Of a stretch of DNA of 52,031 nt, positions 29,323 through 52,031 are shown piece after piece. Where the stretch lies: the sequence record DRR723986_2279. One strand, written 5' to 3'. Position numbers and translations under genes: made by a program. Below the pieces are notes generated by a model, which was not told the DNA's origin, made no database searches, and was given only the letters and a program-made list of their open reading frames with translations. How positions within the stretch are numbered: the first letter of the stretch is position 1; the number at the start of each line of letters is the position of its first letter.

Positions 29323-29351
29323 AAAATTCCAGCTCTCAACAACAGAGGATT

Positions 29352-29368
29352 AGCAAAATCCAGGCCAA
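29352..29368 (-). promoter_or_regulatory. Sigma54 promoter of the dmp operon (Po-like)
   Basis: Minus strand TTGGCCTGGATTTTGCT; IHF-like AATCATATGGTTG at 29383-29395. Confidence 0.8.
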
Positions 29369-29459
29369 CAAAAAAATAATTGCAACCATATGATTTAAAA
29401 GGATTTTATTAAAAATAAAGGAGGGAGATATATGAAAATTCAGGATTACAAAGCTTTTT

Positions 29460-29506
29460 TTCACCAAATGAAAGTCTTATGAATTTTATTTTCATCATTT
29501 GATGCA
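29460..29506. promoter_or_regulatory. Two DmpR/XylR-type UAS
   Basis: TTCACCAAATGAAAGT (29460) and TTCATCATTTGATGCA (29491), 31 bp apart, resembling TTGATCAATTGATCAA. Confidence 0.65.
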
Positions 29507-29541
29507 ATACGAGACTATCATTTTTTAGATTTGAAGATTCC

Positions 29542-29574
29542 AAAAAAAGCTTGGCCGACTAAGTCGGCCAAGCT
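29542..29574 (-). terminator. Rho-independent terminator of the tmo-transport operon
   Basis: Perfect inverted repeat AGCTTGGCCGACT-A-AGTCGGCCAAGCT with a T7 run on the minus strand. Confidence 0.85.
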
Positions 29575-29584
29575 CGGTTATTTT

Positions 29585-30991: not shown

Positions 30992-31007
30992 TATTTAACT
31001 CCTGCCA

Positions 31008-35233: not shown

Positions 35234-35251
35234 TTAAACTCCCCCCAGGAG

Positions 35252-36286
35252 TTAATTAATATCTTTAAAATTATTGTAACTGTTTGGAAAATTACTACTT
35301 TTTCCCGCCAACATACTCCCAGCTCTCCCTACTGCGAATATATTTCCATTAAAAACTTGAACTCCGTAAAGCCAGGAATATCGGCTATCAAAGTTTTTAT
35401 CCACATAAACAAGATACTTTTTATTCTTATTAGAAAGCCTCAGAATAATTGAGTCCCCAACAACAATTACATCTTTTCCATCAAAATCAACATCAAACAA
35501 GTGTTGATCACTGAATTTACTGATTTTTTTAACAACGACATTCCCATCATTTAATATGATCTGACGAATAATCCCATCCAATCCAACAGCTATAGCAAAA
35601 CTACATCCATCGCATCCCTTAACTGCTGTAAATGTGTTCTCGTCATCGCTATTTATACTTATCCAATCTTCGCCATCTTCGCTGTATATAAGCGCTCCAA
35701 ATTCACCAACAGCAATAAAACCAGTCCCAAGTTTAGAAACTCCGTTTAAAGTAGGTATATCTCTACCTGGATATCCGACGATATCTTTTTTTCCCCACGT
35801 CTCACCATAATCATGGGAAATATAAATTCCGCCATTTTTTCCAACAACCACCAAGTTATTACCGCCATATGAATACACATCTCTCAGATAGCCAGTATCC
35901 ACTTGATATATTTTTTTATAAGTTCCAGTTTTAGGATATATTTTGTATATGCCACCTTTGTGTCCTACAGCGACAGCAACCCCGTCTTCATTAACAGCCA
36001 CCCGTCGTAAAAGCTCATTACTATCTACTTTTATTCTTCTCCAGGAATTTCCGTTGTTATTACTGTGAAATACTGCCGAATGATAACCAACAGCCACTAG
36101 ATCTGACCCAGAATTTGCCCCTATACCATACATATTATCGGGCATGTTCCTTGTTTTACTTGGAACCAAACCGTCGCCATCTTTAGAAATATAATTTCCA
36201 GAAAGCAACAGCACACACAGGGTCAAACCAAAGATCTGCCATCTCTTACTTAAAATTGAACTAATTATTTTCATTATTATTTCCAT
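35252..36286 (-). CDS. YCF48-like BNR/Asp-box beta-propeller protein, copy 1
   Basis: Repeated AVG..G.I..S.D.G.TW motifs; N-terminal hydrophobic anchor; start may be 36274. Confidence 0.82.
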   Translation of the reverse strand: MEIIMKIISSILSKRWQIFGLTLCVLLLSGNYISKDGDGLVPSKTRNMPDNMYGIGANSGSDLVAVGYHSAVFHSNNNGNSWRRIKVDSNELLRRVAVNEDGVAVAVGHKGGIYKIYPKTGTYKKIYQVDTGYLRDVYSYGGNNLVVVGKNGGIYISHDYGETWGKKDIVGYPGRDIPTLNGVSKLGTGFIAVGEFGALIYSEDGEDWISINSDDENTFTAVKGCDGCSFAIAVGLDGIIRQIILNDGNVVVKKISKFSDQHLFDVDFDGKDVIVVGDSIILRLSNKNKKYLVYVDKNFDSRYSWLYGVQVFNGNIFAVGRAGSMLAGKSSNFPNSYNNFKDIN

Positions 36287-36300
36287 AACATGAGCCTTAA

Positions 36301-37281
36301 CTAGAAAAATCTATCAAAATGCAACTGATCGAAAGGTACAGATTTCTCCAACATCAGTAGTTTTTGCACAGCTGACGTCATCAAGGGAGGCCCACAAAAG
36401 TAGTATTCCTTCCCTAAATAGTCAGTAATATGTTTTTGAACCACATCATGAATAAATCCGCGCTCGCCACTCCATTTTTCGTCGGCCTCTGACACTGCGG
36501 GGATAAAGTTAAAATTCTCGATTCCAGATGTGATATTTGACAGGTAGGATAAATTTATTTCTTCGCTTGATCTGACGCCGTAGAAGAAATCTATACTAGA
36601 TACATCTTTTCCTTGTATATATTTTAGTATTGATACTATGGGGGAAAGCCCCGCACCGCCCGCTATTAATACCAACCCCTTATCCGATTCTTTATAATAG
36701 GAATTCCCATATGGACCATCTAAAACAATATCTCTTAAATTCAGCTTTCGATCAAAGAGATGCTCTGAAACCAATCCCCCAGGCTTTTTTTTAATTATAA
36801 AACTAATTTTATTTTCATCACTTTGAATAGAAGATACCGAATAAGCCCGCTCCCCGACCCCTGGTATATCTAGCATGTAATACTGTCCTGCCTTGTAGGA
36901 AGCAGGCCTATCAATAGAAAAAATGAACTCAGCGACATCTTCGCTTATATCAACAACCCCAAAAATACTCGCACTGCATCTCTCCGGCGGAATAATTTCC
37001 TTCGGATTAGAATTTATATCTTTTTCAATTTTTATATCTGTGGTCGGAATAGACTGACAGGCTAAATAGTTACCTTTCCTTATATCCCTGCCTGACAAAC
37101 CACTAAATTCACCTTCTTTCCTAATGAGTTCGCCTTCAATCAATTTCACTTTACACAAACCACACCCCCCGGAATTACATTCGTAATCCAAGGGGATAGA
37201 TCGCCTAAGCGCTGACCGTAAAACCGTGTCGCCCTCATCACAGACGTAAGTGATATTATTATTAATTTCTATGTTAGGCAT
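36301..37281 (-). CDS. tmoF: Toluene monooxygenase NADH:ferredoxin oxidoreductase
   Basis: YECNSGGCGLC, RAYSVS, GGAGLSP, YFCGPP, HFDRFF. Confidence 0.9.
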   Translation of the reverse strand: MPNIEINNNITYVCDEGDTVLRSALRRSIPLDYECNSGGCGLCKVKLIEGELIRKEGEFSGLSGRDIRKGNYLACQSIPTTDIKIEKDINSNPKEIIPPERCSASIFGVVDISEDVAEFIFSIDRPASYKAGQYYMLDIPGVGERAYSVSSIQSDENKISFIIKKKPGGLVSEHLFDRKLNLRDIVLDGPYGNSYYKESDKGLVLIAGGAGLSPIVSILKYIQGKDVSSIDFFYGVRSSEEINLSYLSNITSGIENFNFIPAVSEADEKWSGERGFIHDVVQKHITDYLGKEYYFCGPPLMTSAVQKLLMLEKSVPFDQLHFDRFF

Positions 37282-37282
37282 T

Positions 37283-38275
37283 TCACGACCCTCTATTTGT
37301 CACAGAGTCCATTAGATTTTCGTATTTAGATATAATTTCATCCTTATTGAATGAGCTAGACTCAAATCCGTCTAGGTAAGCCAAAATAGCGTCCTTACCT
37401 AGAGGCTTCCATTTATCTGTCCATTCATCTATGGGACCAACGCCCCCCCCATTAGAAGATTTATAAAATTCAGTTAACTTTCTTGCCCATTTAATGTGTC
37501 GTTCCACATCCTTAATCTGGGAATCAATGACAAGCGAAAGAAGTAAATCGTTGTTATTTTTTGACTCTTCAGAAAGCGGCTTTAGAACACCTTCCATAAC
37601 TGCAGGAATAATTACGCCTGAAAGAGATACAAAACACTCGCCCCAATCATAAGTAATTAAATTCTTTTCAATTAACTTTCTAAATCCTTGGTAATATTCA
37701 GATTTTTCCCAAGCCTCCCTTTCACATGAATTGAAATTTATGTCGGGATGATTTTGAGAAAGCTCGTATGTGCGATAAGCCGTATGCGTAGTAAACCTCA
37801 GATAATCCGATGTTTGAAAGGTAGCGCAGTTTGTAATGGTGCTGGCAGGCGCCATTTGTGCTAAGTATGAAGATGACATCTGCACCCCATGGTAGAGATA
37901 TCTGAGGGGAGTGTAGATTTTTGCTAGTAGGCTTACCCACTCTTTTTCAATTTGGAAATCATGACCTCTCTCGCTGAATTGATCAAAAAGGCTGAATACA
38001 TGACTTTCTTGACCATCCTGCATAAGGTTATATGTGCGATAGACGAGCTGATCTGGGTCAGAAAAATCATCCCAATTCTCTGCTTTAAGCTTTGAATTAT
38101 TACGGTAATTTTTGTACCAGCTATTCATAGGCGAACTTGGTGAAAGCTCCCAAGGCGCATCTTTATTGTTAGTACTGTAATGAAGTTTTTTTGTAACCAC
38201 ATCGTATTCACTCGGCTTCTTTCTATTACCCGAGAGGTGGCTCCATGTTTTCAATGTTTTTTGATGTTGTTCCAT
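37283..38275 (-). CDS. tmoE: Toluene monooxygenase hydroxylase beta subunit
   Basis: LKTWSHLS..RKKPSEY, DPDQLVYRTYNLMQDGQE, YDWGE. Confidence 0.92.
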   Translation of the reverse strand: MEQHQKTLKTWSHLSGNRKKPSEYDVVTKKLHYSTNNKDAPWELSPSSPMNSWYKNYRNNSKLKAENWDDFSDPDQLVYRTYNLMQDGQESHVFSLFDQFSERGHDFQIEKEWVSLLAKIYTPLRYLYHGVQMSSSYLAQMAPASTITNCATFQTSDYLRFTTHTAYRTYELSQNHPDINFNSCEREAWEKSEYYQGFRKLIEKNLITYDWGECFVSLSGVIIPAVMEGVLKPLSEESKNNNDLLLSLVIDSQIKDVERHIKWARKLTEFYKSSNGGGVGPIDEWTDKWKPLGKDAILAYLDGFESSSFNKDEIISKYENLMDSVTNRGS

Positions 38276-38290
38276 TATTTTCACCTTAAA

Positions 38291-38608
38291 TCACAAAGAA
38301 CTTACATAATAGAATCGTGCTTTTTCGGACGACATTTCTATTCGCCCAGCAAACGAAGCTAAATTTACTTCCAACTCGTTCATGTTAAATGGACGACCGA
38401 GTTCCTCCTCAATTGTCTTCCGGTAAAGCACCAATTCTGATTCGGTATAAATCCGAACATATGCGATTTTGTCTTCAACGGTGATTATTTTATCTACGTT
38501 ATCTATTGCTGCCGCTTCTGCGACAGCGGAAGCGAGTTCCCCAGCCCTCATAATTGGCCCAACATTGTTATTGTTAAGTGCTTCCTCAGCGGTTTTATTT
38601 TTATTCAT
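38291..38608 (-). CDS. tmoD: Toluene monooxygenase effector protein
   Basis: [35 protein letters not shown]. Confidence 0.92.
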
Positions 38609-38618
38609 TTTTTTAACC

Positions 38619-38957
38619 TTATTTAGCAGCCATGTAAGGTTCGACTCCATCTATATCCACGTAGATGTTGTCGTCTATAATTTTTGTTGGATATTCAGCC
38701 AAATGACAATCTTTAGGATTAACTCCTTCGCCGGTATCACATTTAAAACTCCACAAATGTGCCCTGCAAATTATCAACCCATCCTCATAAGAACCTTCTG
38801 ATAGAAGAATTTTTTGATGAGGGCACATTGCCTGAAATGCCTTAACCCCCCCATCTTCTACCCCAACAACTAGTATTTCTGTTCCATTAGATGTTTCAAA
38901 GGTATCCATTTCGCCTTCCCAAACATCGTCTAAGCTCGCAATTTTTTCGTAAGCCAT
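38619..38957 (-). CDS. tmoC: Toluene monooxygenase Rieske ferredoxin
   Basis: QAMCPHQ...CRAHLW.F. Confidence 0.93.
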
Positions 38958-38961
38958 ATAC

Positions 38962-39216
38962 TTATCCGTCGTAAACAATATCAAGAACTTCTGTAGGTTT
39001 AATCCCACTTTCCGCCACTGTGATATCTCTAGGGAATAGAGTTTTATCTTTATGCTTTCTTACTCTAAGAACCCCGGACCGCTCCTTTACTCGCCGCCCT
39101 AACGAATGATAAGCACACTTCTTTGCAACTTCGTCCATAGTGTCTTCAGTATCAACAGCAACAAGCTGCACTACGAAATCACCCTGAAAATTCGAGTGGA
39201 TAGGAAACATAGACAT
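38962..39216 (-). CDS. tmoB: Toluene monooxygenase hydroxylase gamma subunit
   Basis: FP...[18 protein letters not shown]...AYH...RRV. Confidence 0.92.
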
Positions 39217-39235
39217 CTACTTCTCCTTATTATAA

Positions 39236-40741
39236 TTAAATTGCATTTTTTAATTTTTCTTTGAACTCATTTACCCATTCATAGTTATGGGCATCTTTAC
39301 CAATTTCGGCGTCGCCTTCAAAACCCATATACTTCAAAGCGCCTTCAAGATTCATTGGCTGAATATCCCCACTTAAAAACCTGTCAATCACACTTTTATG
39401 ATCTGCATATTGCTCTGGATATTCTTCAAAAATCCATTTATCCACTTCGTTAGAAAAATGATACAGTCGGCCATTCTTCTCTACGCTGTATACACTCATA
39501 TCCCAATGTTCGTGCCCAGGGATTCCACAAACCGGCAACTGATTCATGTTATCTACGAGCGGGAGGGTTTCAGGCAAAGTTAGGCCCTCCTTACCCTCAA
39601 GGAGATTTGACGTAATTACATCCCAGCACTCCCCCCATCGTTCATTCCAACCAGGGTATTTTTCTTCCAGCCACTCCCTTTCCTCAGGCGTAACGCCAGC
39701 AGCAGGATTCCACCATACTGTTGGACGCCAATACCAAACTCCTAAGTGATACCCGTGATGGCAGGTATCCAGCTCTTCAATGAACTTGTCCCAGTACCAA
39801 GGTTTATCCAAACCAAGGTCGATTAATGAGCGCTCAAACTGCCCTACAATCCACTCAAGCATGAATTCCTTGAACGACATATTCCGATGCTCAATAGGCG
39901 TGTAGTAATCCATCATCGGGCCTGTTAAGACTGCAAACAGGCGCCAAGACCTCCAGATCGCAACATCTACCTTTTTTTGCGCTTCTTCTTTCTTTCCATT
40001 TTTTACAAGAATTTCCAAGATAGGAGCGCCTTGCTGAGCGTGACGGGACTCATCTGTTTGGATACTTGAAATTAAGCTTGAGAACGTATAATCGCCGGCC
40101 TCAGCCGCATCTGCGGCCAAGCCAAGAAATTGCATATTGGTAAACCCACTTTCAAAACTGAAAGTAAGCATGATTGCGACACTCATTGCGTCCCGGCCAG
40201 CGATGATGTCATCGAAAAGCGATCTAGCCGCTATTGCAGCCCATTCATTCTGATGGTAAGCCTTCCAGGCCCAGTCAAATTGACGGTCTTTTTTGCAGTG
40301 TTCATGCGGAAAAAATAGCTGGAGTTGAGCATGCCTTGTTTCATCCAGCATACCAAATACAGCCATGTTCCTATTTCCAGGTGCCTTGGAAAAACGCGCC
40401 ATACGAGCCTCACCTGTCACAGCGGTGTATTCACCTACAGCGATTGCTCCATAGTGCGCCTTAAGAACACTCACCCAGCCTGGATCAGAGTTTTCTACAA
40501 TACTCGCTCTTTCCAATGCCGCTTTAATTGAGTAAGCCCCAGCATCTTTTTCACGCTGTACTTTTACATATTCGGGGAAGGATATTTTATATGGCTCGTC
40601 AAATTGTTCCCAAGCCGCCATAGATATCCCTTGGCTACCCGACATACTCTCCGGATACAACTCTTCTTCACTTACATATTTTGGCGTCCAGTTAACATCT
40701 CTAACGATGTCATACCATTTTTCTCTAGCGTGTATAGCCAT
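39236..40741 (-). CDS. tmoA: Toluene monooxygenase hydroxylase alpha (diiron) subunit, T4MO-like
   Basis: QREKDAGAYS, YGAIAVGEY, DETRH, FESGFTNMQF, DESRH; alternative start 40747. Confidence 0.95.
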   Translation of the reverse strand: MAIHAREKWYDIVRDVNWTPKYVSEEELYPESMSGSQGISMAAWEQFDEPYKISFPEYVKVQREKDAGAYSIKAALERASIVENSDPGWVSVLKAHYGAIAVGEYTAVTGEARMARFSKAPGNRNMAVFGMLDETRHAQLQLFFPHEHCKKDRQFDWAWKAYHQNEWAAIAARSLFDDIIAGRDAMSVAIMLTFSFESGFTNMQFLGLAADAAEAGDYTFSSLISSIQTDESRHAQQGAPILEILVKNGKKEEAQKKVDVAIWRSWRLFAVLTGPMMDYYTPIEHRNMSFKEFMLEWIVGQFERSLIDLGLDKPWYWDKFIEELDTCHHGYHLGVWYWRPTVWWNPAAGVTPEEREWLEEKYPGWNERWGECWDVITSNLLEGKEGLTLPETLPLVDNMNQLPVCGIPGHEHWDMSVYSVEKNGRLYHFSNEVDKWIFEEYPEQYADHKSVIDRFLSGDIQPMNLEGALKYMGFEGDAEIGKDAHNYEWVNEFKEKLKNAI

Positions 40742-40782
40742 TTTCATTCACCTATTATCTTTAAAATAATGCATCTCTACAA

Positions 40783-40799
40783 AGCACGCATCGTGCCAA
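40783..40799 (-). promoter_or_regulatory. Sigma54 promoter of the tmo operon
   Basis: Minus strand TTGGCACGATGCGTGCT; IHF-like 40816-40828; UAS-like TTTACCATATGATCAC 40853-40868. Confidence 0.8.
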
Positions 40800-40958
40800 C
40801 AAAAAAACCCATGCTTTTCAATTAGTTACACTCCTATCACGACGACAAAACATTTACCATATGATCACCAACATTGTTTTTTTATTATTTCATCACTGCT
40901 TTTCTGAAAAATCTAAATCAAAAAACACTTAGCTTGGAAGGAAGCTAAAAAATTATAT

Positions 40959-41645
40959 TTATTTCCAATAATATCCATGGAAAGAATTATTGCTTGGGGT
41001 ATCAAACAATCCAAATATTTTACTTGGGGTAACATACCCCCCCAACCCAAAAGCAATTCGCAAAATATGAAGTGATGGCATAGAATTTTTGAATTTATTA
41101 TTCTTACTCCCCCCAATATTTGATTTACCGAACGTAGAGTTCCAAAGCTTCTCACTCTCCCATAATTTCATACAATTTCTGCAGTATTCCTCTCTCTCCC
41201 CAAGCCCCCAACCAACCCTTTTTTTATAGGCAGATGAAATCCTATCCACACAGACTACTAAAACCCCCCCAACCCCCAGGGAGTCAATGTGCTCTATAAC
41301 TTTGTCATAAACATCGTCAGTCATCCCTGGCTTTATTTTTAACTCAAAGATGTTTTTTTCATTATCCCGAAAGACAAATTCCTTCAAAATTTCCGCTATC
41401 GCAAACCCACTAAACTCACTTCCCACCGTTCTATCACCTGTGACACCAGGATCTTCAAAGAGGCGTATATCTACTATATTGTTTAAGTATGTTACGGAAT
41501 TGACTGAACCATTCTCTTGAGAGCTTATTATTAAAATCTTTTTGAACTTCCTGTTATTAACTAACCTCTGTAAACTTGACCTTACACGCGCCTCGTTAAC
41601 AATTTTCTCATCACAGTTAAGATACAAAATACTTTTATCCAGCAT
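40959..41645 (-). CDS. Hypothetical protein, possibly degenerate LigB/DODA-fold; paralogue of 16593-17216
   Basis: 228-codon ORF in AT-rich DNA, G-rich RBS, own sigma54 promoter (which argues against the 41750 start). Confidence 0.7.
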   Translation of the reverse strand: MLDKSILYLNCDEKIVNEARVRSSLQRLVNNRKFKKILIISSQENGSVNSVTYLNNIVDIRLFEDPGVTGDRTVGSEFSGFAIAEILKEFVFRDNEKNIFELKIKPGMTDDVYDKVIEHIDSLGVGGVLVVCVDRISSAYKKRVGWGLGEREEYCRNCMKLWESEKLWNSTFGKSNIGGSKNNKFKNSMPSLHILRIAFGLGGYVTPSKIFGLFDTPSNNSFHGYYWK

Positions 41646-41724
41646 CCACCCCCCCTTATCCCAACTTAAGTCATCTATGTACCACCCCCAAAAAATGACT
41701 AGATCACTGCTTCGGCAAGGTAAT

Positions 41725-41740
41725 TGCAATAGACATACCA
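41725..41740 (-). promoter_or_regulatory. Sigma54 promoter of the 41645 ORF
   Basis: Minus strand TGGTATGTCTATTGCA; IHF-like AATCAAGAAATTC at 41778-41790. Confidence 0.7.
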
Positions 41741-41808
41741 CCCTTATCAACCGTGAGCTATCTAACTGTTTTTAGGAGAATTTCTTGATTTACAGCACAT
41801 TTGGCTAT

Positions 41809-41871
41809 TTCACCATTTGACAACTTTGCCCAATTAATTGATCAATTGGTAAATCTTCAGCAGATGATCAA
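41809..41871. promoter_or_regulatory. Cluster of DmpR/XylR-type binding sites upstream of the regulator gene
   Basis: TTCACCATTTGACAAC (41809), TTGATCAATTGGTAAA (41838), TTCAGCAGATGATCAA (41856). Confidence 0.75.
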
Positions 41872-41922
41872 ACGCCCAAGCAGCGATCACGTACATATAA
41901 AAAAATATAAAAGAGGCTATCC

Positions 41923-43623
41923 ATGGCGGCAAAAAACAAAATTCATCCTATCGACTACTCCAACTTTCAGGACCTTACCCAACAAATACGATTTCAGAGT
42001 ACTGAAGGCAAAATCTGGCTAGGGGAACAACGAGTTCTCCTAATGCAAGTTAGCGCTATGGCTGCATTTCGGCGGGAACTCTTAAACACGATAGGCGTAG
42101 AGAGATCAAAAGGGTTCTTCTTAAGGCTTGGCTATCAATCAGGGCTCAAAGATGCTGAGCTTGCAAGGAACCTGAGGCCAGAAAGCTCCGAAATCGACAT
42201 TTTCTTAGCTGGCCCACAGCTACACTCGCTTAAAGGTATGGCGAAAGTCATTCCTCTGGAAGTTAGCATCAACCAAGAAACAGGCCATTTTTATGGGGAG
42301 TTCGAGTGGATTGATTCGTATGAAGTTGAAATTTGCCAAACAGAAGTTGGCCTAATATCAGAGCCAGTTTGCTGGTCACTTTTGGGATATGCTTGTGCCT
42401 ATGCTTCGTCCTTTATGGGAAGGGAAATATTATTCCAAGAAACCTCTTGCAGAGGAGCCGGCGATGAACGCTGTATTATAGTCGGAAAACCTGCCGAAAA
42501 CTGGGAAAACCCCACCCAGTTCCGCAACTACTTTAAATCAGATCCTGTAATAGAGGAGCTTTATGAACTTCAGTCTAAGATCTGCTCGATAAGAGAAGAT
42601 GTAAAAAATCAGGAAGGTAGGTTTTATGGTATTGGGCAGTCTCAATCTTATATTCAAATGTGCGAGACAATTGATAAAGCTGCGAAGAGTAAAGTTGCCG
42701 TATTACTTCAAGGTGAGACTGGAGTAGGTAAAGAGGTTATCGCGAAAAGCGTTCACCTTAGAAGTGACCGCGCAGATCACCCCTTTGTCGCGGTTAACTG
42801 CGCCTGCATACCCCCGGACTTGATAGAAGCGGAACTTTTTGGCGTTGAGAAGGGAGCCTATACAGGAGCCCACCAGTCCCGACCCGGTCGTTTCGAAAGA
42901 GCTAACGGCGGAACAATTTTTTTAGACGAAGTGATAGAACTTAATCCAAGAGCTCAAGCGAGCTTGCTGCGCGTGCTTCAAGAAGGCGAACTAGAACGTG
43001 TCGGTGACAGTCAAACTAGACCTATAGACGTTAGAATCATCGCCGCTACCAACGAGGACCTTTCTGATGCAGTCAAAAATGGCCGCTTTCGTGCCGATCT
43101 TTATTTTCGATTGAATGTATTTCCGGCCTACATCCCTCCCCTGAGAGAACGCCTCGAAGACCTTCCGTTGTTAATTGAGCATTTTGTATCTAAATTTCAT
43201 CAAGAATATAATAAACGCACCCTAGGGCTTTCAGACAAAGCACTAGAAGCATGCCTTAATTATTCTTGGCCAGGAAACATACGCGAATTAGAAAATGTAA
43301 TAGAACGAGGAATAATTTTAACCAATGAAAATGACAGCATTAGCAGAAATTCGTTATTTTCTACAATATCTCAAACAACTAATTCGGCAGATGACGTAGT
43401 TAACAAAGAAGGTGAACTTATCAACACCTTAACTTCATTGCCAGAGTACAACTGGGTTGATCATATCATTGAAGAAGGTATAAGTATTGAAGAAGTAGAG
43501 CTAACATTGATACGGTCTTCAATGGATAGAAACAATAATAATGTCTCTGCCGCTGCCAGACTACTAGGGCTTAGCCGCCCAGCCTTTGCATATAGACTCA
43601 AAAAATTCGGTTTATTAGAATAA
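41923..43623 (+). CDS. DmpR/XylR/TouR-family sigma54-dependent aromatic-sensing activator
   Basis: XylR_N (GKIWLGEQR), V4R cysteines, GETGVGKE, GAYTGA, Fis-type HTH. Confidence 0.95.
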   Translation: MAAKNKIHPIDYSNFQDLTQQIRFQSTEGKIWLGEQRVLLMQVSAMAAFRRELLNTIGVERSKGFFLRLGYQSGLKDAELARNLRPESSEIDIFLAGPQLHSLKGMAKVIPLEVSINQETGHFYGEFEWIDSYEVEICQTEVGLISEPVCWSLLGYACAYASSFMGREILFQETSCRGAGDERCIIVGKPAENWENPTQFRNYFKSDPVIEELYELQSKICSIREDVKNQEGRFYGIGQSQSYIQMCETIDKAAKSKVAVLLQGETGVGKEVIAKSVHLRSDRADHPFVAVNCACIPPDLIEAELFGVEKGAYTGAHQSRPGRFERANGGTIFLDEVIELNPRAQASLLRVLQEGELERVGDSQTRPIDVRIIAATNEDLSDAVKNGRFRADLYFRLNVFPAYIPPLRERLEDLPLLIEHFVSKFHQEYNKRTLGLSDKALEACLNYSWPGNIRELENVIERGIILTNENDSISRNSLFSTISQTTNSADDVVNKEGELINTLTSLPEYNWVDHIIEEGISIEEVELTLIRSSMDRNNNNVSAAARLLGLSRPAFAYRLKKFGLLE

Positions 43624-43647
43624 AAATAGGAGCATTTCATACCTTAC

Positions 43648-43673
43648 GCCCATCTTAAATTATTTAGATGGGC
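43648..43673 (+). terminator. Hairpin after the regulator (possible weak terminator)
   Basis: GCCCATCT...AGATGGGC, poor U-tract. Confidence 0.4.
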
Positions 43674-43800
43674 AATATTTGACAGGTCAGAATTTACCAT
43701 TTGACCCAATTCGTTTACGACCTCACTAAATAAACAGCCCCCCCACTAAAAAGAATATAAATTTCACATAACTTTCAAACAGTTAACCGAAATAAAAAAC

Positions 43801-43816
43801 TGGCATGAATTGTGCT
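43801..43816 (+). promoter_or_regulatory. Sigma54 promoter driving a short, apparently non-coding transcript
   Basis: TGGCATGAATTGTGCT; IHF-like 43773-43785; UAS-like TTTACCATTTGACCCA 43693-43708. Confidence 0.72.
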
Positions 43817-43826
43817 TATTTTGAAC

Positions 43827-43956
43827 ATTATCTGCAGTCTTTCGGGACGTTAGACCGTAGGTGCGGCTAGGTGGGGGCAAATGCTGCTTGTCACCGCCTT
43901 GGAGAGTTACCGCACTCTCACCTCTTGGGGCTACACATTCTGTAGCCCCCTTTTTT
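43827..43956 (+). ncRNA. Candidate structured sRNA, copy 1
   Basis: Between a sigma54 promoter and terminator GGGGCTACA-CATTC-TGTAGCCCC-C-T6; homologous to 51085-51220. Confidence 0.65.
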
Positions 43957-44263
43957 ATCAGCCTCAATGTTAAGTAACATAATTATAATTTCAGCTATCC
44001 ATTTTCGTTTAACACCCACAATTCATCGACATTCGTGAATTTCTATCAGGAAACATGCGCCCCAGCATACACACCACAACAAGATTTGATTAGCAATAGG
44101 CGACTAACACAGTAAAAATATCTCCCATATTTCACCCTTCCAGAAAAACCTCACCATATCGTAAAAAATTTCCTCACCCCGCCCTCCAACAACAGCGGGC
44201 AACGGGCTGCTTTTATTCAATATTCTCCATATATTTCAGTGCGTTAAAATAATAATAACGTCA

Positions 44264-44279
44264 TGGCATAGCCATTGCT
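44264..44279 (+). promoter_or_regulatory. Sigma54 promoter of the second envelope module
   Basis: TGGCATAGCCATTGCT; UAS-like CTCACCATATCGTAAA 44150-44165; IHF-like 44234-44246. Confidence 0.75.
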
Positions 44280-44326
44280 GATACCGCCTTGCCGATACTT
44301 TCAAATAACAACGACGGTAATCATTC

Positions 44327-45316
44327 ATGACGCAGAATTGTGCGCGAGCTGTAAGCCCGCGATCTATCGTACCCACCTGTCTCGCACTAAGTGCCGCGCT
44401 CCTTGCCGCCTGTGAGGCACCGCTGGAACTGGACGCTGTGAACGAGCATGCGCAGCAAGCCATACAGCGCACCGACTATTACCAGGCCATGGCCGGCAAC
44501 AGCGAGCGGACCCTGCTGGTGGGAAACCGCGGCACCTTGCTCGCCAGCGAGGATCACGGCCAACACTGGCAGCGCGAAGCGGTGAACACCAACGCCAGTT
44601 TCATCGATATAGCCAGCTGCCCGAACAATAGTTTTGTGGCGCTGACCTTTGACAACCACGTCTGGCACGGCACCGACCAAGGCTGGCAACAACACGCCCT
44701 ACCCAGCAGCGAGCAGATGATGACCATCACCTGCAGTAGCGATAATCACTGGTGGGTTGCCGGCAGCTTTACAACCTTCCAGCACTCGAGCGACCAGGGT
44801 TTAACATGGCAGACATCCAGCCTGGATGAAGACGCCATCGTCACCAACCTGCAATTTCTGGGTTCCAATCACGCTGTTGCCACCGCCGAGTACGGCATGA
44901 TCCTCACCACTGCAGACAACGGAAAAAACTGGCAGGTATCGGGGTATTTACCTGATGAGTTCTACCCCCATGCCAGCTACTTCCGCTCGCCAAACGAAGG
45001 CTGGGTGGGCGGCCTAAACGGCTTCATCTACCACACCCGCGACGGTGGCGACTCCTGGCAGCGCCAGAGCACAGACACTCAAGCCCCGATTTTTAATTTT
45101 ATACACCATCCGCAGGGACTGTTTGCAGTCGGGGATAACGCCACCGTACTCGCGCTCAACGGTCAGCAATGGTCATCACTGGAAACCCCGAGCATTCCTC
45201 TTTACTTGCGCGCTGTTGCCGCCGACGGGGACACGCTGGTGGCCGCCGGCGGCCGGGGCCTAATGCTTCGCATCGCGACATCACCATCCGCAACTAGCGC
45301 TACCAATAATAAGTAA
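44327..45316 (+). CDS. YCF48-like BNR/Asp-box beta-propeller lipoprotein, copy 2
   Basis: LLAAC lipobox; S.D.G..W repeats (SEDHGQHW, SSDQGLTW, TADNGKNW, TRDGGDSW). Confidence 0.85.
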   Translation: MTQNCARAVSPRSIVPTCLALSAALLAACEAPLELDAVNEHAQQAIQRTDYYQAMAGNSERTLLVGNRGTLLASEDHGQHWQREAVNTNASFIDIASCPNNSFVALTFDNHVWHGTDQGWQQHALPSSEQMMTITCSSDNHWWVAGSFTTFQHSSDQGLTWQTSSLDEDAIVTNLQFLGSNHAVATAEYGMILTTADNGKNWQVSGYLPDEFYPHASYFRSPNEGWVGGLNGFIYHTRDGGDSWQRQSTDTQAPIFNFIHHPQGLFAVGDNATVLALNGQQWSSLETPSIPLYLRAVAADGDTLVAAGGRGLMLRIATSPSATSATNNK

Positions 45317-45331
45317 TCAAGGAACACTATC

Positions 45332-47758
45332 ATGGCACTGCACCGATTTACGCACGCCCTGCACCTGCTGGAGCTGTGGATTTTCAATAACCCGCGCAAA
45401 GTGCTCGTGCTGATCGCATTGCTCACGGTGTTTTTTGCCCTGCGCATTCCGGGGCTAAAAATCTACACCGACTTTGCTGACCTGCTGCCGCAACAGCACC
45501 CCTACATACAACTGCACAACAGTATTAAGGACGATTTTGGCGGGGCGAATGTGCTTGTGGTTGGCATCGAATTCGACGACGGCGACCTCTTTACCAATGA
45601 GCGGCTCGCGCTGATCGACCGCGTCACCCAGGCGGTGGACAACCTGCCCGGCGTGAACCACAACCTGGTATCCAGCGTGACTCACCGCAACTCGCGCAAA
45701 ATCTGGCTTACAGAAGTCGGCAGCATTAACTCCCAGCCGTATTTCGACGCCACAAAAGGCCCCTACAGCAGCGACCAATTAGCCAGCATGAGAGCAGATG
45801 TGAGCGCTAACCCACGCGTATTTGGTCCGCTGGTTGCGCCCGATTTAAAGATGGCGCTGGTAAAAGCGCAGCTCATTGAAGGGCAACTCGACTACGAAAA
45901 CACCTTCAAACAATTGCGGGAATTACGCGATGAGGTGGCGGCACAGGGCGTCACCCTATACGCCACAGGCCAACCAGTACTTGTGGGCTGGGCCTACACC
46001 TACATGGACCAGATCCTGCAAATTTTTGCCTTCACGGTACTCACCATGCTGGCGCTGCTGATTTTTCACTTCCGCAAAGCCTATGGCGTGTTGATCCCGC
46101 TGGGTGGCGTGTTGATCTCGACGATCTGGGGTCTGGGCATTATCAGTCTGCTCGGCTACAACCTTGATCCGCTCGGCCTGGTGATCCCGTTTCTCATCGC
46201 CGCGCGGGCAATGAGCCACGGTGTGCAGCTTGTCGAACGCTACTACGCCGAGGCGGCAACGCTGGGCAACGGCTCGGCGGCAGCCAAAGCCACCTTCGAC
46301 AGCTTGTTCCGCCCCGGCTCACTGGGTGTGGTCTCAGATGCCATCGGTCTGCTGTTAATTTCCGTGGGATCGATCCCCCTGAACACCCACCTTGGCATCT
46401 ACGCCTCACTCTGGGCGATTACCGTGGTATTCAGTGTGTTGGTGGGCGTGCCCCTGCTGCTATCGATTCTACCCACACCGCGCGAACCGCGCCTGAAAGA
46501 AACCGTTTTACGCCATATCGGTGCGAGCAGCTCACGCATTGTGAGCCAGCCGGGAAATGCGACGAAGCTGCTATTTGTCGCCGCGGTCGCTGTTGTACTG
46601 GGCATGGCCGCCGCGTCCCAGGTTCAAATTGGCGACTCCGAACCTGGCTCGCCAATTCTCTACCCCGACCACGACTACAACATTTCCTCTCGCGTGGTGA
46701 ACGAGCGCTTCCCCGGTTCGGAAGAACTCTATGTCGTCGCCGAGACAGATAAAAAAGGCGGATTAAAACGCCCCGATGTTCTGAAGGCACTGGCTGACTT
46801 TCAAGCCCATATGCTCACCGACCCGGGCGTTGGCGGCGCGAAAGGCTTGCCCGATCTGATCAAGCAGGTGAATCGCCTGATGCATAACAACGACCCCCGT
46901 TGGTATCAGATCCCCCACGATGAACGCTACGTCGGCGGCTTGATGTTCACCTATATGGCCTCCAGCCCCATCCCCGGCGCACTGGACGAATTTAACAACA
47001 CCGACGACCAAGTGGCGAACCTGGTCTTCTATTACAAGGACCGCCAGGGCGAGACCATACGTCGCGCCATTCATATGGCCAAGGAATGGATTGCCCAGCA
47101 CGGCAATGACGTCGAGGGCCTTACCATCAAACTCGCCGGGGGCACACTGGGCGTTGCCGCGGCCATGAATGAGTCGGCCTACCAGACCAACCTGATCGTA
47201 CTGCCGCTGGTGTTCTTACTCATCTTTGCCTTTGTCACGCTGTTTTATACCTCCTGGCACGCCGGTGTGATGATGCTGCTGGCAATGTTATTTGCCACCA
47301 CCCTCACCTACGCCTACATGGGATTGTCCGGGCTGAATATCGACATCAACACCGTGCCGGTAATCGCGGTGGGTATCGGCGTGGGCATCGACTACTCCAT
47401 CTACATGATGGATAGAATTCGCGAGGAAATGGCCAAGTGCCAGAACCTGGCCAAGTCCGTACAGCGTGCAATCTCCACCACCGGCATGGCTATTAGCTTT
47501 ACTGCACTAACCCTGATGGCAGGCATTGTCATGTGGGTGATCTTTTCCGACCTGCGCTTTCAATCGGACTCCGCGCTGCTGCTTTGCGTGATGATCGTCA
47601 TTAACGGCATTACCGCCATGCTGCTTGTTCCCTCCTGGGTGCTGCGCTTTAAACCCCGCTTTATTACCGCCGTGTATGCCGACGAAGACGGTGTGCTCCA
47701 CGCGGATTCAACAACCGCAACTTCTGTGGAAAACGCCCTCGGCGTTTCTCAAACCTAG
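45332..47758 (+). CDS. RND-superfamily / MMPL inner-membrane transporter, copy 2
   Basis: FGGAN, GIGVGIDYSIYMMDRIREE; two-repeat TM architecture. Confidence 0.88.
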   Translation: MALHRFTHALHLLELWIFNNPRKVLVLIALLTVFFALRIPGLKIYTDFADLLPQQHPYIQLHNSIKDDFGGANVLVVGIEFDDGDLFTNERLALIDRVTQAVDNLPGVNHNLVSSVTHRNSRKIWLTEVGSINSQPYFDATKGPYSSDQLASMRADVSANPRVFGPLVAPDLKMALVKAQLIEGQLDYENTFKQLRELRDEVAAQGVTLYATGQPVLVGWAYTYMDQILQIFAFTVLTMLALLIFHFRKAYGVLIPLGGVLISTIWGLGIISLLGYNLDPLGLVIPFLIAARAMSHGVQLVERYYAEAATLGNGSAAAKATFDSLFRPGSLGVVSDAIGLLLISVGSIPLNTHLGIYASLWAITVVFSVLVGVPLLLSILPTPREPRLKETVLRHIGASSSRIVSQPGNATKLLFVAAVAVVLGMAAASQVQIGDSEPGSPILYPDHDYNISSRVVNERFPGSEELYVVAETDKKGGLKRPDVLKALADFQAHMLTDPGVGGAKGLPDLIKQVNRLMHNNDPRWYQIPHDERYVGGLMFTYMASSPIPGALDEFNNTDDQVANLVFYYKDRQGETIRRAIHMAKEWIAQHGNDVEGLTIKLAGGTLGVAAAMNESAYQTNLIVLPLVFLLIFAFVTLFYTSWHAGVMMLLAMLFATTLTYAYMGLSGLNIDINTVPVIAVGIGVGIDYSIYMMDRIREEMAKCQNLAKSVQRAISTTGMAISFTALTLMAGIVMWVIFSDLRFQSDSALLLCVMIVINGITAMLLVPSWVLRFKPRFITAVYADEDGVLHADSTTATSVENALGVSQT

Positions 47759-47760
47759 TG

Positions 47761-47787
47761 GGTGCCGGGTGGTCGACACCCGGCACC
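47761..47787 (+). other. Intergenic perfect 11-bp hairpin
   Basis: GGTGCCGGGTG-GTCGA-CACCCGGCACC then TCTTT. Confidence 0.7.
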
Positions 47788-47814
47788 TCTTTCGCTCTAC
47801 AACGAGGATCTGCT

Positions 47815-49743
47815 ATGAAAAAAACAATAAAAGGCCTGCGATTCTGGTGTGCTGCTCTCAGTGGCGCCGCCGGCATATCAATGGTGGGAGGCACTGTGCA
47901 AGCCGACGATAGTACGCATATCGCCGGCTTCTACGAGAACGCGACCTTTGTTCGCGACGGTGTGGGACTGTCGAAGTTTCGCAATACCGTACAACTGGAA
48001 GCGGAGAAGCTGTTTGGTGATGTTGGCAGCTTCAGCAATGTCAGCATCAACGCCACATTTCGCGGCAGCTATGACGGCGTCTACGACCTGAATGACGACG
48101 AATACGGCAAAAATGCGGGCGGCCCAATTCGTCTTCAGGATGCCGTGCGCGGCTACGTTGATCATGGCGATGGTCTCTCCACCTCGAATACGCCGCTTCC
48201 GCCGGGGGCAACGCTGGAGTTCGACAATAACCGCAACCCCAACGACGGCATGGTGGTACTCGGCGAGCACCTGCACAAGCAAAATGGTGGCGTCGCCTTT
48301 GGCGTTCCTGTTCGCCCCTGCGATGTAGACAGTCGCGGCTGTATTGATGACTACCTGGACAAAGACCGCGACGAGCTGCGCTACCAGGAATTCAACGATC
48401 GCTATGACTTTATTCGCGAACTCTACGTCGACTTTGACTTGAACTTCGACAATGGCGACATCCTCAGCACCCGCCTTGGTAAGCAGCAAGTCATCTGGGG
48501 AAGAACCGACTTATTTCGCGTGTTAGATGTTATCAACCCCGTTGATTACTCGCGCAATAATATCTACGACGAGCTGGAAGATATTCGCATCCCCATGTGG
48601 ATATTAAAAACTGACTACCGCATGGGCCCAACCGAGATGTTCGACGGTTTCGCCTTTGACGATCTAAACGTTCAGTTGGTTTGGAACTTCGATAAGTTCC
48701 GCCCACACGATATTGGTCAGTGCGGCCAGCCCAACGTTATTCTCGATGCGGGCTGTTTCTTCCGCGGCATGAACAACCTTTGGGAAAATGGCGGCACCGT
48801 TGCCAACTTCGCTGGCGCTGACCCCAACGGCGGTGTTGCCACCGACTTCGGCCCCGGCCAGATCGGTATTCGCAAAGCCCACATGCCCAGCTGGAGCTTG
48901 TCCAACACGCAAGTCGGCCTGAAATTCGAAGGGGTGTACGGCGATTTGGGCTTCTCACTCAACGCCCTTAACTTCCGCTCACAGCTTCCCTCCCTGCGCG
49001 GCGGCATCCCCGCCGAAAACGGTTTCACCGGGCAGGTTGGCGTATGGCCATCATTGATCGCCTTTGATATTCACTTCCCCCGCGTCACGCTGTTGGGCGG
49101 CTCGCTGGACTATTATGCCCAAAGCATCGACACCGTGATTCGCGCCGAAGTGGCCCACACCAGCGGTGAAGAATTTGCCAATACGCTGCGCAGCGAACTG
49201 TACTCAGAGTCAGATGTGCTGCGCTACGTACTAGGTGCGGATAAAAATATCTTCATTCCCTTCCTCAACGAGCGCCGAGCATTTCTGTTCTCAGGGCAGA
49301 TCTTTGGTCAGCACATCCTCGACCACGAGAGCGAGCACCGCTTGTATGGTGAAGCAGGTATTCCCGACTGGGAACAAAACTGGACCGCAACACTGCTGAT
49401 TAAAGGCTGGTGGATGAACGACCGCCTGAGCCCACAGATCATTGCGGCGCACGATATTCGCGCAGGCTCTTCCACCATTGCCCCCAGCATTGAGTGGCTG
49501 GTGAATGACCAACTCCGCCTCACTGCTGGCTTCAACATCAAAGTTGGCGAAGGCGCTCAGAAGTTTGATGACTGCCGAACCTGTAACCCCTGGGCACCGT
49601 TTACAGAAGCCTATCCCGGCCAACCCGCGGGCGAAACGGCAGGCCTGGGTGGCTACGAGCCACTGGGGCGCTTCCGCGCTGGCCCAATCGGCATGGCCCA
49701 AGAAGAAGATGAATTCCAACTGACTGTTCGCTACAGCTTCTAA
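47815..49743 (+). CDS. DUF1302-family outer-membrane beta-barrel protein, copy 2
   Basis: GAGGA RBS, signal peptide, RELYVD...GKQQVIWGRTD.FRVLDVINPVD...RIPMW, C-terminal YSF. Confidence 0.82.
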   Translation: MKKTIKGLRFWCAALSGAAGISMVGGTVQADDSTHIAGFYENATFVRDGVGLSKFRNTVQLEAEKLFGDVGSFSNVSINATFRGSYDGVYDLNDDEYGKNAGGPIRLQDAVRGYVDHGDGLSTSNTPLPPGATLEFDNNRNPNDGMVVLGEHLHKQNGGVAFGVPVRPCDVDSRGCIDDYLDKDRDELRYQEFNDRYDFIRELYVDFDLNFDNGDILSTRLGKQQVIWGRTDLFRVLDVINPVDYSRNNIYDELEDIRIPMWILKTDYRMGPTEMFDGFAFDDLNVQLVWNFDKFRPHDIGQCGQPNVILDAGCFFRGMNNLWENGGTVANFAGADPNGGVATDFGPGQIGIRKAHMPSWSLSNTQVGLKFEGVYGDLGFSLNALNFRSQLPSLRGGIPAENGFTGQVGVWPSLIAFDIHFPRVTLLGGSLDYYAQSIDTVIRAEVAHTSGEEFANTLRSELYSESDVLRYVLGADKNIFIPFLNERRAFLFSGQIFGQHILDHESEHRLYGEAGIPDWEQNWTATLLIKGWWMNDRLSPQIIAAHDIRAGSSTIAPSIEWLVNDQLRLTAGFNIKVGEGAQKFDDCRTCNPWAPFTEAYPGQPAGETAGLGGYEPLGRFRAGPIGMAQEEDEFQLTVRYSF

Positions 49744-49761
49744 TAATAGAGAGGACACACC

Positions 49762-51084
49762 ATGTTTAACTATCAACGTTTAAAACGCACCGTGCTTGCC
49801 AGCTGCGCGGCCTGCCTGCTGGCGGGCAACGCAATGGCCAATGATGCGCTGATCAACAACTCCTTCCACCCTTACAAGGAGTCACTGCCCAGCCACCCAG
49901 GCCTTAGCGCTGGCACTGTCATTAACAAGGACAATGTTGCCCAGTTTAAAGACCTGCTCGACCCCGCTTTTCTACATTTTGTCGAGCAAGGCTGGACAAC
50001 CATAACCGTAGGCGAGACCACCTCCTTCGACCTGCATAGCAGCTATATTGACGCCACCCGCGCGTCACTCGGCAAGGTAACGCTCGGCGAGAAAGTGGGT
50101 GAAATCAGCGGCTGGCACGCCGGCCGCCCCTTCCCGGAGGAACCCAAGGCCGACGACCCACGCGCGGGTGAAAAGCTGGCGTGGAACTACAAATACGGCT
50201 ACAACTGGGGCGACAGCGCCGCGATCTACCCCTTCTACTGGAAGTACCGCGACATGAATACCGCAGCGGTGGAGCGCACCATTAAATTCAATTTCCATTT
50301 CTTGAACTTTAAAGGTCGCGTTAACCAGCAACCCACCCCCGAAATTACGCCGAACCCGTCAGACCTGTTCCGCGCAATCTATGTGCAGGTGCTAGACCCC
50401 TACGATGTGCGCAACACGCAGTTGTTGATCCATCGCGCTGCCGACGACCTCAAGCGTGATAACTCGTGGTTGTACCTCGGCTTTCAGAGACGCGTTCGCC
50501 GCCTCGCTACCGGCCAGGTTACCGATGCCTTCCTCGGCTCCGACCTAATGATCGAAGACTTCGAAGGCTATAACGGGCGCATCTCCGACATGAACTGGAA
50601 GTACAAAGGCACCCGCTACATGTTAATGCCGTTCTACAACCACAATGCCCTGCAGCTGGACAGCGAAACCCATAGCGATGATGACGGCTACCAAGTGGTC
50701 GCCTTCAGCGGCAAGGGCGGCTGCTTCCCAAACATCACCTGGCAGCTGCGCAAAGTGTACGAAGTGGAAGCCACCCCGGTCGACGAGGGGCACCCTCTTT
50801 CGAAGCGTATTCACTTTATGGATGCACAAACCTTCACGATTCCGCGCACCGTGTCCTACGACCGCAAGGGCAGCCTGTGGAAGACCTTCACCATCGGCCA
50901 GGCCCACCCCGACCATCACCTGCCGCAAAACAAAGGCAGTGGCGTTTCGATCGACGACAGCTTCAGCATGATCGACGTGCAAGCCAGTCACTGCACCACC
51001 GGGCAATTCAAAGGCCAAGTGGATCCCTCACTCTCACCCGCCAGCATGTTTAGCGTTCAACACCTGCGCGCTACCGGCAGCTAA
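49762..51084 (+). CDS. DUF1329-family periplasmic protein (LolA-like), copy 2
   Basis: Signal peptide; G.PFP, WLY..QRRVRRL, YDRKGSLWK. Confidence 0.85.
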   Translation: MFNYQRLKRTVLASCAACLLAGNAMANDALINNSFHPYKESLPSHPGLSAGTVINKDNVAQFKDLLDPAFLHFVEQGWTTITVGETTSFDLHSSYIDATRASLGKVTLGEKVGEISGWHAGRPFPEEPKADDPRAGEKLAWNYKYGYNWGDSAAIYPFYWKYRDMNTAAVERTIKFNFHFLNFKGRVNQQPTPEITPNPSDLFRAIYVQVLDPYDVRNTQLLIHRAADDLKRDNSWLYLGFQRRVRRLATGQVTDAFLGSDLMIEDFEGYNGRISDMNWKYKGTRYMLMPFYNHNALQLDSETHSDDDGYQVVAFSGKGGCFPNITWQLRKVYEVEATPVDEGHPLSKRIHFMDAQTFTIPRTVSYDRKGSLWKTFTIGQAHPDHHLPQNKGSGVSIDDSFSMIDVQASHCTTGQFKGQVDPSLSPASMFSVQHLRATGS

Positions 51085-51220
51085 TGGCGTCCCTGTCGCT
51101 GCGCTTCGGGACGTTGCGCAGCGGCATTAGCGGGTCTGTCGTCGATAAGCCCTCTTATCGACCCCGCTGAGAGTCACCATGCTCTCGCTCCTTGGGGCTG
51201 CATTACGCAGCCCCCTTTTT
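51085..51220 (+). ncRNA. Candidate structured RNA element, copy 2 (3' UTR of the DUF1329 gene, ending in a terminator)
   Basis: Same loop TTCGGGACGTT, GAGAGT hairpin and GGGGCT...AGCCCC-C-T5 terminator as 43827-43956. Confidence 0.6.
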
Positions 51221-51244
51221 ATCGACAACAACGAGGCCGTCAGA

Positions 51245-51829
51245 ATGCCGCAAGAAACAACGACCGACCAAAGTCAGGCACTCACCGTGGTGGTCTCCCG
51301 CCGCGTTAAACACGGCAAAGAACAGGAATTTGAAGCCCTCAGCAACGAAATGACCAGTCGCGCCAGCCACTTCCCCGGCTACCTTGGCGCCACCATGTTT
51401 CGCCCCGCTTCCGCCGACGACCCGGAATACCGCATCGTGTTCAAATTCAGCGACCCAGCCACCCTCTCCCACTGGGAGCAGTCCCCACGCAGGCTGGACC
51501 TGCTGCAGGAAATTGAACAGCTTCTCGTCACGCCGAGCGAACGGGAAATCACCGAGGGCATTGTCACCTGGTTTACCCTGCCGGGGCACAACCCCGTGCT
51601 GCCGCCACCGCGTTACAAGATGACCCTCGTCAGCTGGCTGGCACTCTACCCCGCCGTCACCGCCATCTTCTTCCTGTTGGGCGACTGGCTCGCCACCCTG
51701 CCACTCCCCCTGCGCACACTCATTGTCACCGCCACCGTAATGCTGCTGATGAGCTACGTGCTAATGCCCCGCATGACGCGCTGGTTCTCGCGCTGGCTTT
51801 ACCCTAAATCGAACACCAATACCCGATGA
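51245..51829 (+). CDS. ABM-like (dimeric alpha/beta barrel) domain protein with two C-terminal TM helices
   Basis: V.RRVK.G.E.EF, FPGYLG, F..W..SP.R, PPRYKM..V.WLALYP; GAGG RBS; the 51179 start lies inside the RNA element. Confidence 0.8.
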   Translation: MPQETTTDQSQALTVVVSRRVKHGKEQEFEALSNEMTSRASHFPGYLGATMFRPASADDPEYRIVFKFSDPATLSHWEQSPRRLDLLQEIEQLLVTPSEREITEGIVTWFTLPGHNPVLPPPRYKMTLVSWLALYPAVTAIFFLLGDWLATLPLPLRTLIVTATVMLLMSYVLMPRMTRWFSRWLYPKSNTNTR

Positions 51830-51917
51830 AAGCGCGCACTCAACCCCGACAAGGCATGAAAAAGGTCGACCAACACCCCTCCACACCAATACAAGCTAAC
51901 TTACTGTTTTCAAGGAC

Positions 51918-51946
51918 TTGACTCACCGAATCGGAACAGGTTTAAT
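51918..51946 (+). promoter_or_regulatory. Sigma70 promoter of tRNA-Phe
   Basis: TTGACT-17 nt-TTTAAT followed by GC-rich discriminator ACGCGCC. Confidence 0.8.
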
Positions 51947-51984
51947 ACGCGCCTCTTGCGAAGTACATCAGTGACCTCGCCTAC

Positions 51985-52031
51985 GCCCAGATAGCTCAGT
52001 CGGTAGAGCAGTGGATTGAAAATCCTCGTGT
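51985..52031 (+). tRNA. tRNA-Phe(GAA), truncated by the window end
   Basis: GCCCAGATAGCTCAGTCGGTAGAGCAG...TTGAAAA anticodon loop, near-identical to enterobacterial tRNA-Phe. Confidence 0.95.

Follow-up and report, generated by a model that had tools for sequence, protein, structure and literature searches.

Paired four-hairpin RNA elements beside a DUF1329 envelope operon and a XylR/DmpR-type activator gene: a candidate lineage-restricted small RNA

The closest described systems to the locus reported here are of two kinds. CpxQ, SroC, and DapZ are small RNAs (sRNAs) of enterobacteria that derive from 3' untranslated regions (3'UTRs). CrcZ (after cbrB), NrsZ (after ntrC), and Qrr (beside luxO) are sigma54-dependent sRNAs that lie beside activator genes. 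We analyzed a 52,031-nucleotide (nt) stretch of DNA from sequence record DRR723986_2279, termed the window, which holds two homologous RNA elements that recall these two arrangements. Copy A (43827-43960) and copy B (51091-51225) are both on the plus strand and are about 135 bases each. B directly follows the DUF1329 gene of an envelope operon, while A stands downstream of a XylR/DmpR-type activator gene and behind a sigma54-type promoter-like site. We tentatively favor, with slightly less than even confidence, a reading in which both copies specify one structured sRNA that is made by two routes, from the 3' end of an operon (B) and from its own sigma54 promoter (A), and that is aromatic responsive and acts in trans. 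The elements are probably a small, lineage-restricted regulatory RNA and not a widespread new family.

Model R1, a covariance model trained on B only, recovered A in the 52-kb window with a score of 57.8 bits (E about 1e-12), and all other matches in the window reached at most 17 bits. Thus, the window has exactly two copies and no third, and the pair of homologous elements proposed in the initial annotation of this DNA stands. The 11-nt loop of hairpin 1, TTCGGGACGTT, is identical in A (43841-43851) and B (51105-51115), and the window holds no other exact match to it (searched as reverse complement). Minimum free energy folds gave four successive hairpins for each copy. The fold of A has an energy of -50.4 kcal/mol (z -2.8), which was equaled by 3 of 200 shuffles, and that of B has an energy of -69.8 kcal/mol (z -5.8), which none of 200 shuffles equaled.

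In A, the fold and the covariance model match place hairpin 1 at 43829-43863, hairpin 2 at 43865-43898, and hairpin 3 at 43902-43919. These are followed by a 7-nt C/U-rich linker (43920-43926) and a terminator of nine pairs (43927-43949) with a run of six Ts (43951-43956). The fold of B has the same order, with hairpin 1 at 51094-51126, hairpin 2 at 51129-51168, hairpin 3 at 51169-51186, the 7-nt linker at 51187-51193, and a terminator of eight pairs (51194-51214) with five Ts (51216-51220). Both copies therefore end like intrinsic terminators, with a GC-rich stem and then a T-run, and in a listing of terminator-like sites across 43500-52031 their final hairpins take the top two places. The terminators of A and B show one compensatory pair at columns 111/121 (U-A/A-U versus U-G.../G-C). 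Hairpin 3, the linker, and the terminator with its compensatory change are as first annotated. B had been drawn from 51085; an element is indeed there, but its structure starts at 51094, and 51085-51093 is an unpaired spacer between the DUF1329 stop codon (51082-51084) and the first stem.

We searched for relatives with two further models, R2 (built from A plus B) and R3, in about 190 genomes, and with a strict pattern in metagenome contigs. R2 gave one real match among 28 genomes of the genus (G009, 94.8 bits), and the one real match among 40 genomes of the family was G009 too. The pattern scan returned four metagenome contigs. The copies in L104 and L105 are of the B type, and there these contigs match the window at 98.6% identity. 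The copy in L106 is of the G009 type, and that in L103 is of the A type. The known sequence types are three: the window, one of the 28 genus genomes, and the four near-identical metagenome contigs.

These sequences yielded a covariation alignment of seven sequences, six of them distinct and about three of them independent lineages, fitted to the covariance model. Across the six distinct sequences, standard pairs occupy 93.9% of cells. Two-sided changes were found in 13 of the 42 pairs, and hairpin 1, with its 13 pairs, accounts for 7 of these changes. None of 500 shuffles reached the observed covariation, and sliding the partners by 1 to 3 columns gave only 0 to 3 such pairs.

The comparison of B with G009 shows where the element resists change. 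At third codon positions of the adjacent DUF1329 gene, the window and G009 differ at 194 of 441 sites (44%). The hairpin-3 arms do not differ at all (0/12), and the differences are few in the hairpin-1 loop (1/11), the linker (1/7), and the terminator arms (2/16, one compensatory pair). More changes are found in the hairpin-1 arms (8/22), hairpin 2 (14/41), and the loops of hairpin 3 and the terminator (8/13). The stems of hairpin 1 had been described as unrelated between the two copies. This fits A versus B, with 16 differences among 22 arm positions, but not B versus G009, where the 8 changes are ordinary compensatory drift.

A could be compared with L103, from which it differs at 8 of 134 positions (6%), whereas the intergenic flanks differ at 65 of 363 (18%; Fisher p 5e-4). 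No change touches hairpin 1, the stem of hairpin 3, the linker, or the terminator. Six of the eight differences fall in hairpin 2, which still folds in L103 (z -4.1), and by our reading of both sequences four of these six keep or create a pair. Taken together, the covariation, the conserved loop, and the conservation above the flanks support the RNA-level selection that the initial annotation had suggested, acting on the fold, the hairpin-1 loop, and the block of hairpin 3, linker, and terminator.

B belongs to a second envelope module on the plus strand (module 2, 44327-51084), in which open reading frames and Pfam matches identify BNR/YCF48-like, MMPL/RND-like, DUF1302, and DUF1329 genes. 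A sigma54-type promoter matching TGGC-N8-TGCT precedes the module (44264-44279, plus strand) and is conserved with G009. Hairpin 1 of B starts 10 nt 3' of the DUF1329 stop codon, and the element lies within 10 nt of that codon in both the window and G009. Since hairpin 1 comes directly after the stop codon, B is the 3'UTR of the DUF1329 operon, and its earlier description as a free-standing gene has to be dropped. In both the window and G009, the element is placed as 3'UTR-derived sRNAs are, on the same strand and between the stop codon and the intrinsic terminator. G009 has the gene order activator, BNR, RND, DUF1302, DUF1329 (92% protein identity), element, and ABM gene, with a single copy at the B position and no A.

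In the window, the ABM-domain gene (51245-51829, plus strand, by Pfam) starts 25 nt beyond the T-run of B, so it can be reached only by read-through or from a promoter upstream of the terminator. Separately, a second sigma54-like match, TGGCGTCCCTGTCGCT, at 51085-51100 overlaps the 5' arm of hairpin 1 of B. The start predicted from it would fall inside the hairpin-1 loop, and the site is not conserved in G009.

RNA evidence came from the assembled contigs of four metatranscriptome runs, which carry no ends, strand, or level. Module 2, including B, lies within contigs of these runs from 44259 to 51619 at about 95-99% likeness, and one contig spans 50484-51461, through B and into the ABM gene. 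The contigs start at 44259, and none lies over 43000-44258. The organism in these runs differs from the window upstream of 44259, and the RNA contigs are therefore silent on A. For B, they show no more than that this region is present in RNA libraries.

A follows the XylR/DmpR-type sigma54 activator gene (41923-43623, plus strand; Pfam XylR_N, V4R, Sigma54_activat, and HTH_8), a neighbor that the initial annotation overlooked along with the sigma54-type promoter in front of A. A terminator-like hairpin at 43648-43673 follows the activator gene, and a promoter-like site of the sigma54 type (-24 GG/-12 GC), TGGCATGAATTGTGCT, lies at 43801-43816 on the plus strand, identified by its match to the -24/-12 consensus. 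With its own promoter-like site and the activator's own terminator-like hairpin upstream, A forms a distinct unit within AT-rich DNA. The predicted start of A, at about 43827 (about 12 nt past the GC), is 2 nt before hairpin 1. By this consensus match, A has the arrangement of a sigma54-dependent sRNA, a -24/-12 site at the right distance with an adjacent activator gene. The -24 GG and -12 GC are kept in L103 although the flanks differ by 16-20%. Throughout the window, TGGC-N8-TGCT has 10 matches versus 3.2 expected, at least four of which are just upstream of genes or A.

Relative to the window (43807), L103 has 16 extra bases at about 13560-13592, between the promoter-like site of A and hairpin 1. 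This insert has TGCTTA repeated at its borders, resembles a slippage product, and would add 16 nt to the 5' end of the RNA. A search for activator binding sites common to the four sigma54 promoters gave nothing convincing. A sits 300 nt upstream of the module-2 promoter, and we considered it as a leader, attenuator, or riboswitch of module 2. We rejected this, as G009 and L105 have the operon (and the promoter) without A.

We propose that A and B are paralogous copies of one structured RNA of about 130 nt that would end at an intrinsic terminator. B would be made as the 3' end of a sigma54-driven BNR-RND-DUF1302-DUF1329 transcript, from which processing could release a stable RNA. A would be transcribed alone from the sigma54-type promoter downstream of the XylR/DmpR-type activator gene, with its start where the consensus predicts it. 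If aromatic substrates are the inducers that switch on the sigma54 activators, both routes would raise the amount of the RNA. The RNA would most likely act in trans as a small regulatory RNA, and its recognition sites for mRNAs or for a protein could be the invariant hairpin-1 loop, the single-stranded C/U-rich linker, or both.

A more specific version of this two-route model adds a history and a purpose. The operon 3'UTR (B) would have been copied and captured by a sigma54 promoter beside an aromatic-sensing activator (A), so that toluene or phenol would induce the same sRNA both from the envelope operon for hydrophobic substrates and independently of it, and the loop would tune envelope or catabolic genes. 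We regard this version as possible but doubtful, at about one chance in four.

Several observations weigh against the two-route model. The distribution is very narrow and confined to one lineage. R3 gave no real match in 151 genomes of the order, where four weak matches (20-23 bits) were terminators only, and the full element was found at none of 80 named loci (0/80) with the closest DUF1329 relatives (69-85% identity; Marinobacter, Halopseudomonas, Paraglaciecola, and others). In G009 and L105, the same operon occurs with no accompanying A. Since only three sequence types in one narrow lineage are known, the covariation support is limited to about three independent lineages in a model-fitted alignment. 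Possible targets of the loop in the window, allowing up to two mismatches, numbered 11 versus 13.3 expected, and the linker would pair with almost any Shine-Dalgarno (SD) sequence and so points to no target. Finally, the RNA contig that bridges B into the ABM gene fits an sRNA no better than it fits read-through or carry-over of DNA into the library. The initial annotation had put forward a candidate new noncoding RNA family. The elements match no Rfam family, as that proposal implies, but three sequence types in one narrow lineage fall short of it.

The 80 DUF1329 loci gave 26 weak model matches (12.6-27.8 bits), every one of them at a stop codon plus terminator. Most Marinobacter loci have a short 3'UTR with a C/U-rich motif and then a GC-rich terminator. 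TGCTYYY is found in the 70 nt that follow the DUF1329 stop codon at 26 of 59 loci (L022-L080), which include kin and are not independent, compared to 3.3% of control windows. The C/U-rich motif and terminator of the Marinobacter loci may themselves be an older conserved anti-SD-like 3'UTR element. Because most Marinobacter loci keep only these two parts, hairpins 1 to 3 look like an addition made in one lineage upstream of an older linker plus terminator.

This pattern also suits a function in cis only, in which the element is a 3'-end module that protects the upstream mRNA from 3' exonucleases and sets read-through into the ABM gene, with A doing the same for the activator transcript. Both copies lie downstream of a gene on the same strand, and other DUF1329 loci retain just the linker and terminator at the same place. 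Moreover, the ABM gene starts 25 nt after the T-run of B, which implies that transcription leaks through or bypasses the terminator, and one RNA contig runs across it. However, a block to exonucleases needs stable stems and not an invariant 11-nt loop or a fixed hairpin-3 sequence. For A, the terminator-like hairpin of the activator gene separates it from the activator transcript, and it has a promoter-like site of its own. We judge this explanation unlikely, at somewhat better than one chance in four.

The conserved loop could instead be read by a protein. In this explanation, the hairpin-1 loop is a site for CsrA/RsmA or another protein, which the element titrates or recruits. A GGA is displayed at the tip of a conserved loop, closed by C-G, on a variable stem, and the shape of the loop resembles the CsrA/RsmE hairpin site. 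However, the loop is one base shorter than the consensus of that site, and neither copy matches the Rfam CsrB, RsmY, or RsmZ families. The GGA of the hairpin-1 loop is the only one common to A, B, G009, and L103, as a second GGA in A (43901-43903) has no counterpart in B or G009, and L103 has lost it. A single conserved GGA argues against a CsrA/RsmA sponge, and we rejected the titrating sRNAs as a class for these elements. A role as a protein-binding RNA has, in our estimate, little more than a one-in-ten chance.

It is also conceivable that only B matters and that A is an inert relic of a partial duplication or recombination that brought a DUF1329 3' end beside the activator gene, with a promoter-like site that arose by chance. 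A is 53% GC inside flanks of 34-39% GC, and the 17 bases 5' of A match the end of the DUF1329 gene 5' of B at 9 positions (counted on the A/B alignment). G009 and L105 lack A. Against this, the divergence of A from L103 is one third of that of the flanks and spares hairpin 1, the hairpin-3 stem, the linker, and the terminator. Hairpin 2 of L103 still folds, and the -24 GG and -12 GC are kept. An inert A is improbable on these grounds, and we put it at one chance in ten.

The position of the copies as direct repeats around a 7-kb gene module within a mosaic region raises the case of a DNA-level element, either a repeat of the REP (repetitive extragenic palindromic) or MITE (miniature inverted-repeat transposable element) kind or a recombination site bracketing module 2. 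Such a repeat would be present genome wide, but G009, which is 100% complete and the one complete relative having the element, has a single copy, and the window has no more than its two. We saw neither terminal inverted repeats nor target duplications, the recombination breakpoints lie away from the copies, at about 42600 and about 44226, and variable arms around a conserved center are the opposite of a dimeric DNA-binding site. Viral contigs and plasmids hold no real match. We consider a DNA-level element very unlikely.

A small peptide is the least probable explanation, hardly worth entertaining: plus-strand open reading frames of 21 codons in A (43805-43870) and 28 codons in B (51084-51170) read the loop as F-G-T-L in both, and the ATG of B overlaps the DUF1329 stop codon (TAATG), but an extra base in the G009 loop breaks the frame, the peptides are unrelated outside the loop, and the ATG of A lies within the promoter-like site, upstream of the predicted transcript start.

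BLAST with A against 41 relatives returned short matches to the promoter or terminator part only. The closest activator homologues in 401 genomes of the order have 71% identity, and the best plasmid match has 70.9%. No close activator homologue was found in 401 genomes of the class (none passing E 1e-200), and neither the 20 best activator homologues of the order genomes nor the best plasmid homologue have an A-like element next to them. Plasmids gave no DNA match to the element. Two pattern matches in viral contigs were set aside as chance, with 6.9 bits from the model at one and no full-length match at the other.

The surroundings are a mosaic. From 29585 to 43826 the GC content is 34-43%, and the remainder of the window is at 56-61%. 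A low-GC island (about 40%) at 29256-42600 holds, on the minus strand and by Pfam, a first copy of the envelope module (module 1, BNR, RND-like, DUF1302, and DUF1329, 29585-36286) and a six-gene toluene-monooxygenase-type cluster (36301-40747). G009 and L105 lack this island. After the DUF1329 gene of module 1, the model scan of the window found no element, just a plain terminator. A phenol-hydroxylase cluster (24672-29005, minus strand, Pfam) lies beyond the island.

L103 (which begins at 30254) differs from the window by 0-0.3% up to a breakpoint at about 42600, inside the activator gene. Past it, the differences rise to 6-9% in the remaining activator gene and 16-20% in the intergenic DNA around A, and the BNR gene of L103 is of the G009 type, about 29% different from that of the window. 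L105 has the window-type module 2 and B with a G009-like activator and no A, which indicates that A travels with the window-type activator gene.

Other sigma54-type matches lie at 1051-1066 (plus strand), just upstream of a gene at 1072, at 29352-29367 (minus strand), just upstream of the phenol-hydroxylase cluster, and at 40783-40798 (minus strand), just upstream of the toluene-monooxygenase cluster. From these consensus matches, the region appears to be largely sigma54 controlled. Between the monooxygenase cluster and the activator gene is a 1.1-kb stretch of 37% GC (40748-41922), whose sole long open reading frame (40959-41750, minus strand, 263 amino acids) matches nothing in Pfam and is unlikely to be a gene. 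A tRNA gene at 51985-52031 is cut by the window end.

Expression of the RNA and action in trans, if confirmed, would make it the first regulatory RNA linked both to the BNR-RND-DUF1302-DUF1329 envelope modules, which are widespread and poorly understood, and to the catabolism of aromatic hydrocarbons by marine degraders. The two copies would then show a 3'UTR element becoming a free-standing, activator-controlled sRNA gene. If the version with copying and capture is true, the birth of an sRNA gene from a 3'UTR would be caught in the act and linked to hydrocarbon degradation. The very narrow distribution limits the weight of this.

We compared both copies with known RNA families. Rfam 15, run over the whole window at gathering thresholds, found only the tRNA at 51985, and permissive Rfam scans of A and B gave nothing with an E value below 0.1, in keeping with the initial view that the family was not a recognized one. 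The best subthreshold match was mmgR/suhB (RF00519) to 43885-43964 of A, at 18.9 bits versus a gathering score of 41 (E 0.14), with none for B. The likeness is a C/U-rich stretch before a GC-rich terminator. We rejected this family, as it is alpha-proteobacterial, from another phylum, and the match is driven by the terminator. In full-text searches on DUF1302/DUF1329 and on Marinobacter sRNAs, no title or abstract opening named an RNA at this locus. CsrB, RsmY, and RsmZ share with the elements a GGA exposed in a hairpin loop, but they have many GGA motifs, whereas here one is conserved and Rfam gives no match.

The nearest parallels are those with which we began. B shares three features with CpxQ, SroC, and DapZ: it sits between the stop codon and the intrinsic terminator at the end of an operon, it is more conserved than neutral change would allow, and the bases directly 5' of its terminator are single stranded. 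It differs in having no sequence or Rfam relationship to them and in having a paralogue with its own promoter-like site. Like CrcZ, NrsZ, and Qrr, A adjoins a sigma54 activator gene and has a -24/-12 site and its own terminator. It has no Rfam match to these RNAs, has neither the CA-rich motifs seen in CrcZ nor the modular repeats seen in NrsZ, and is adjacent to an activator of the XylR/DmpR aromatic-sensing type instead. By this comparison, we read the resemblances to CrcZ/NrsZ and to CpxQ as likeness of kind and not as membership.

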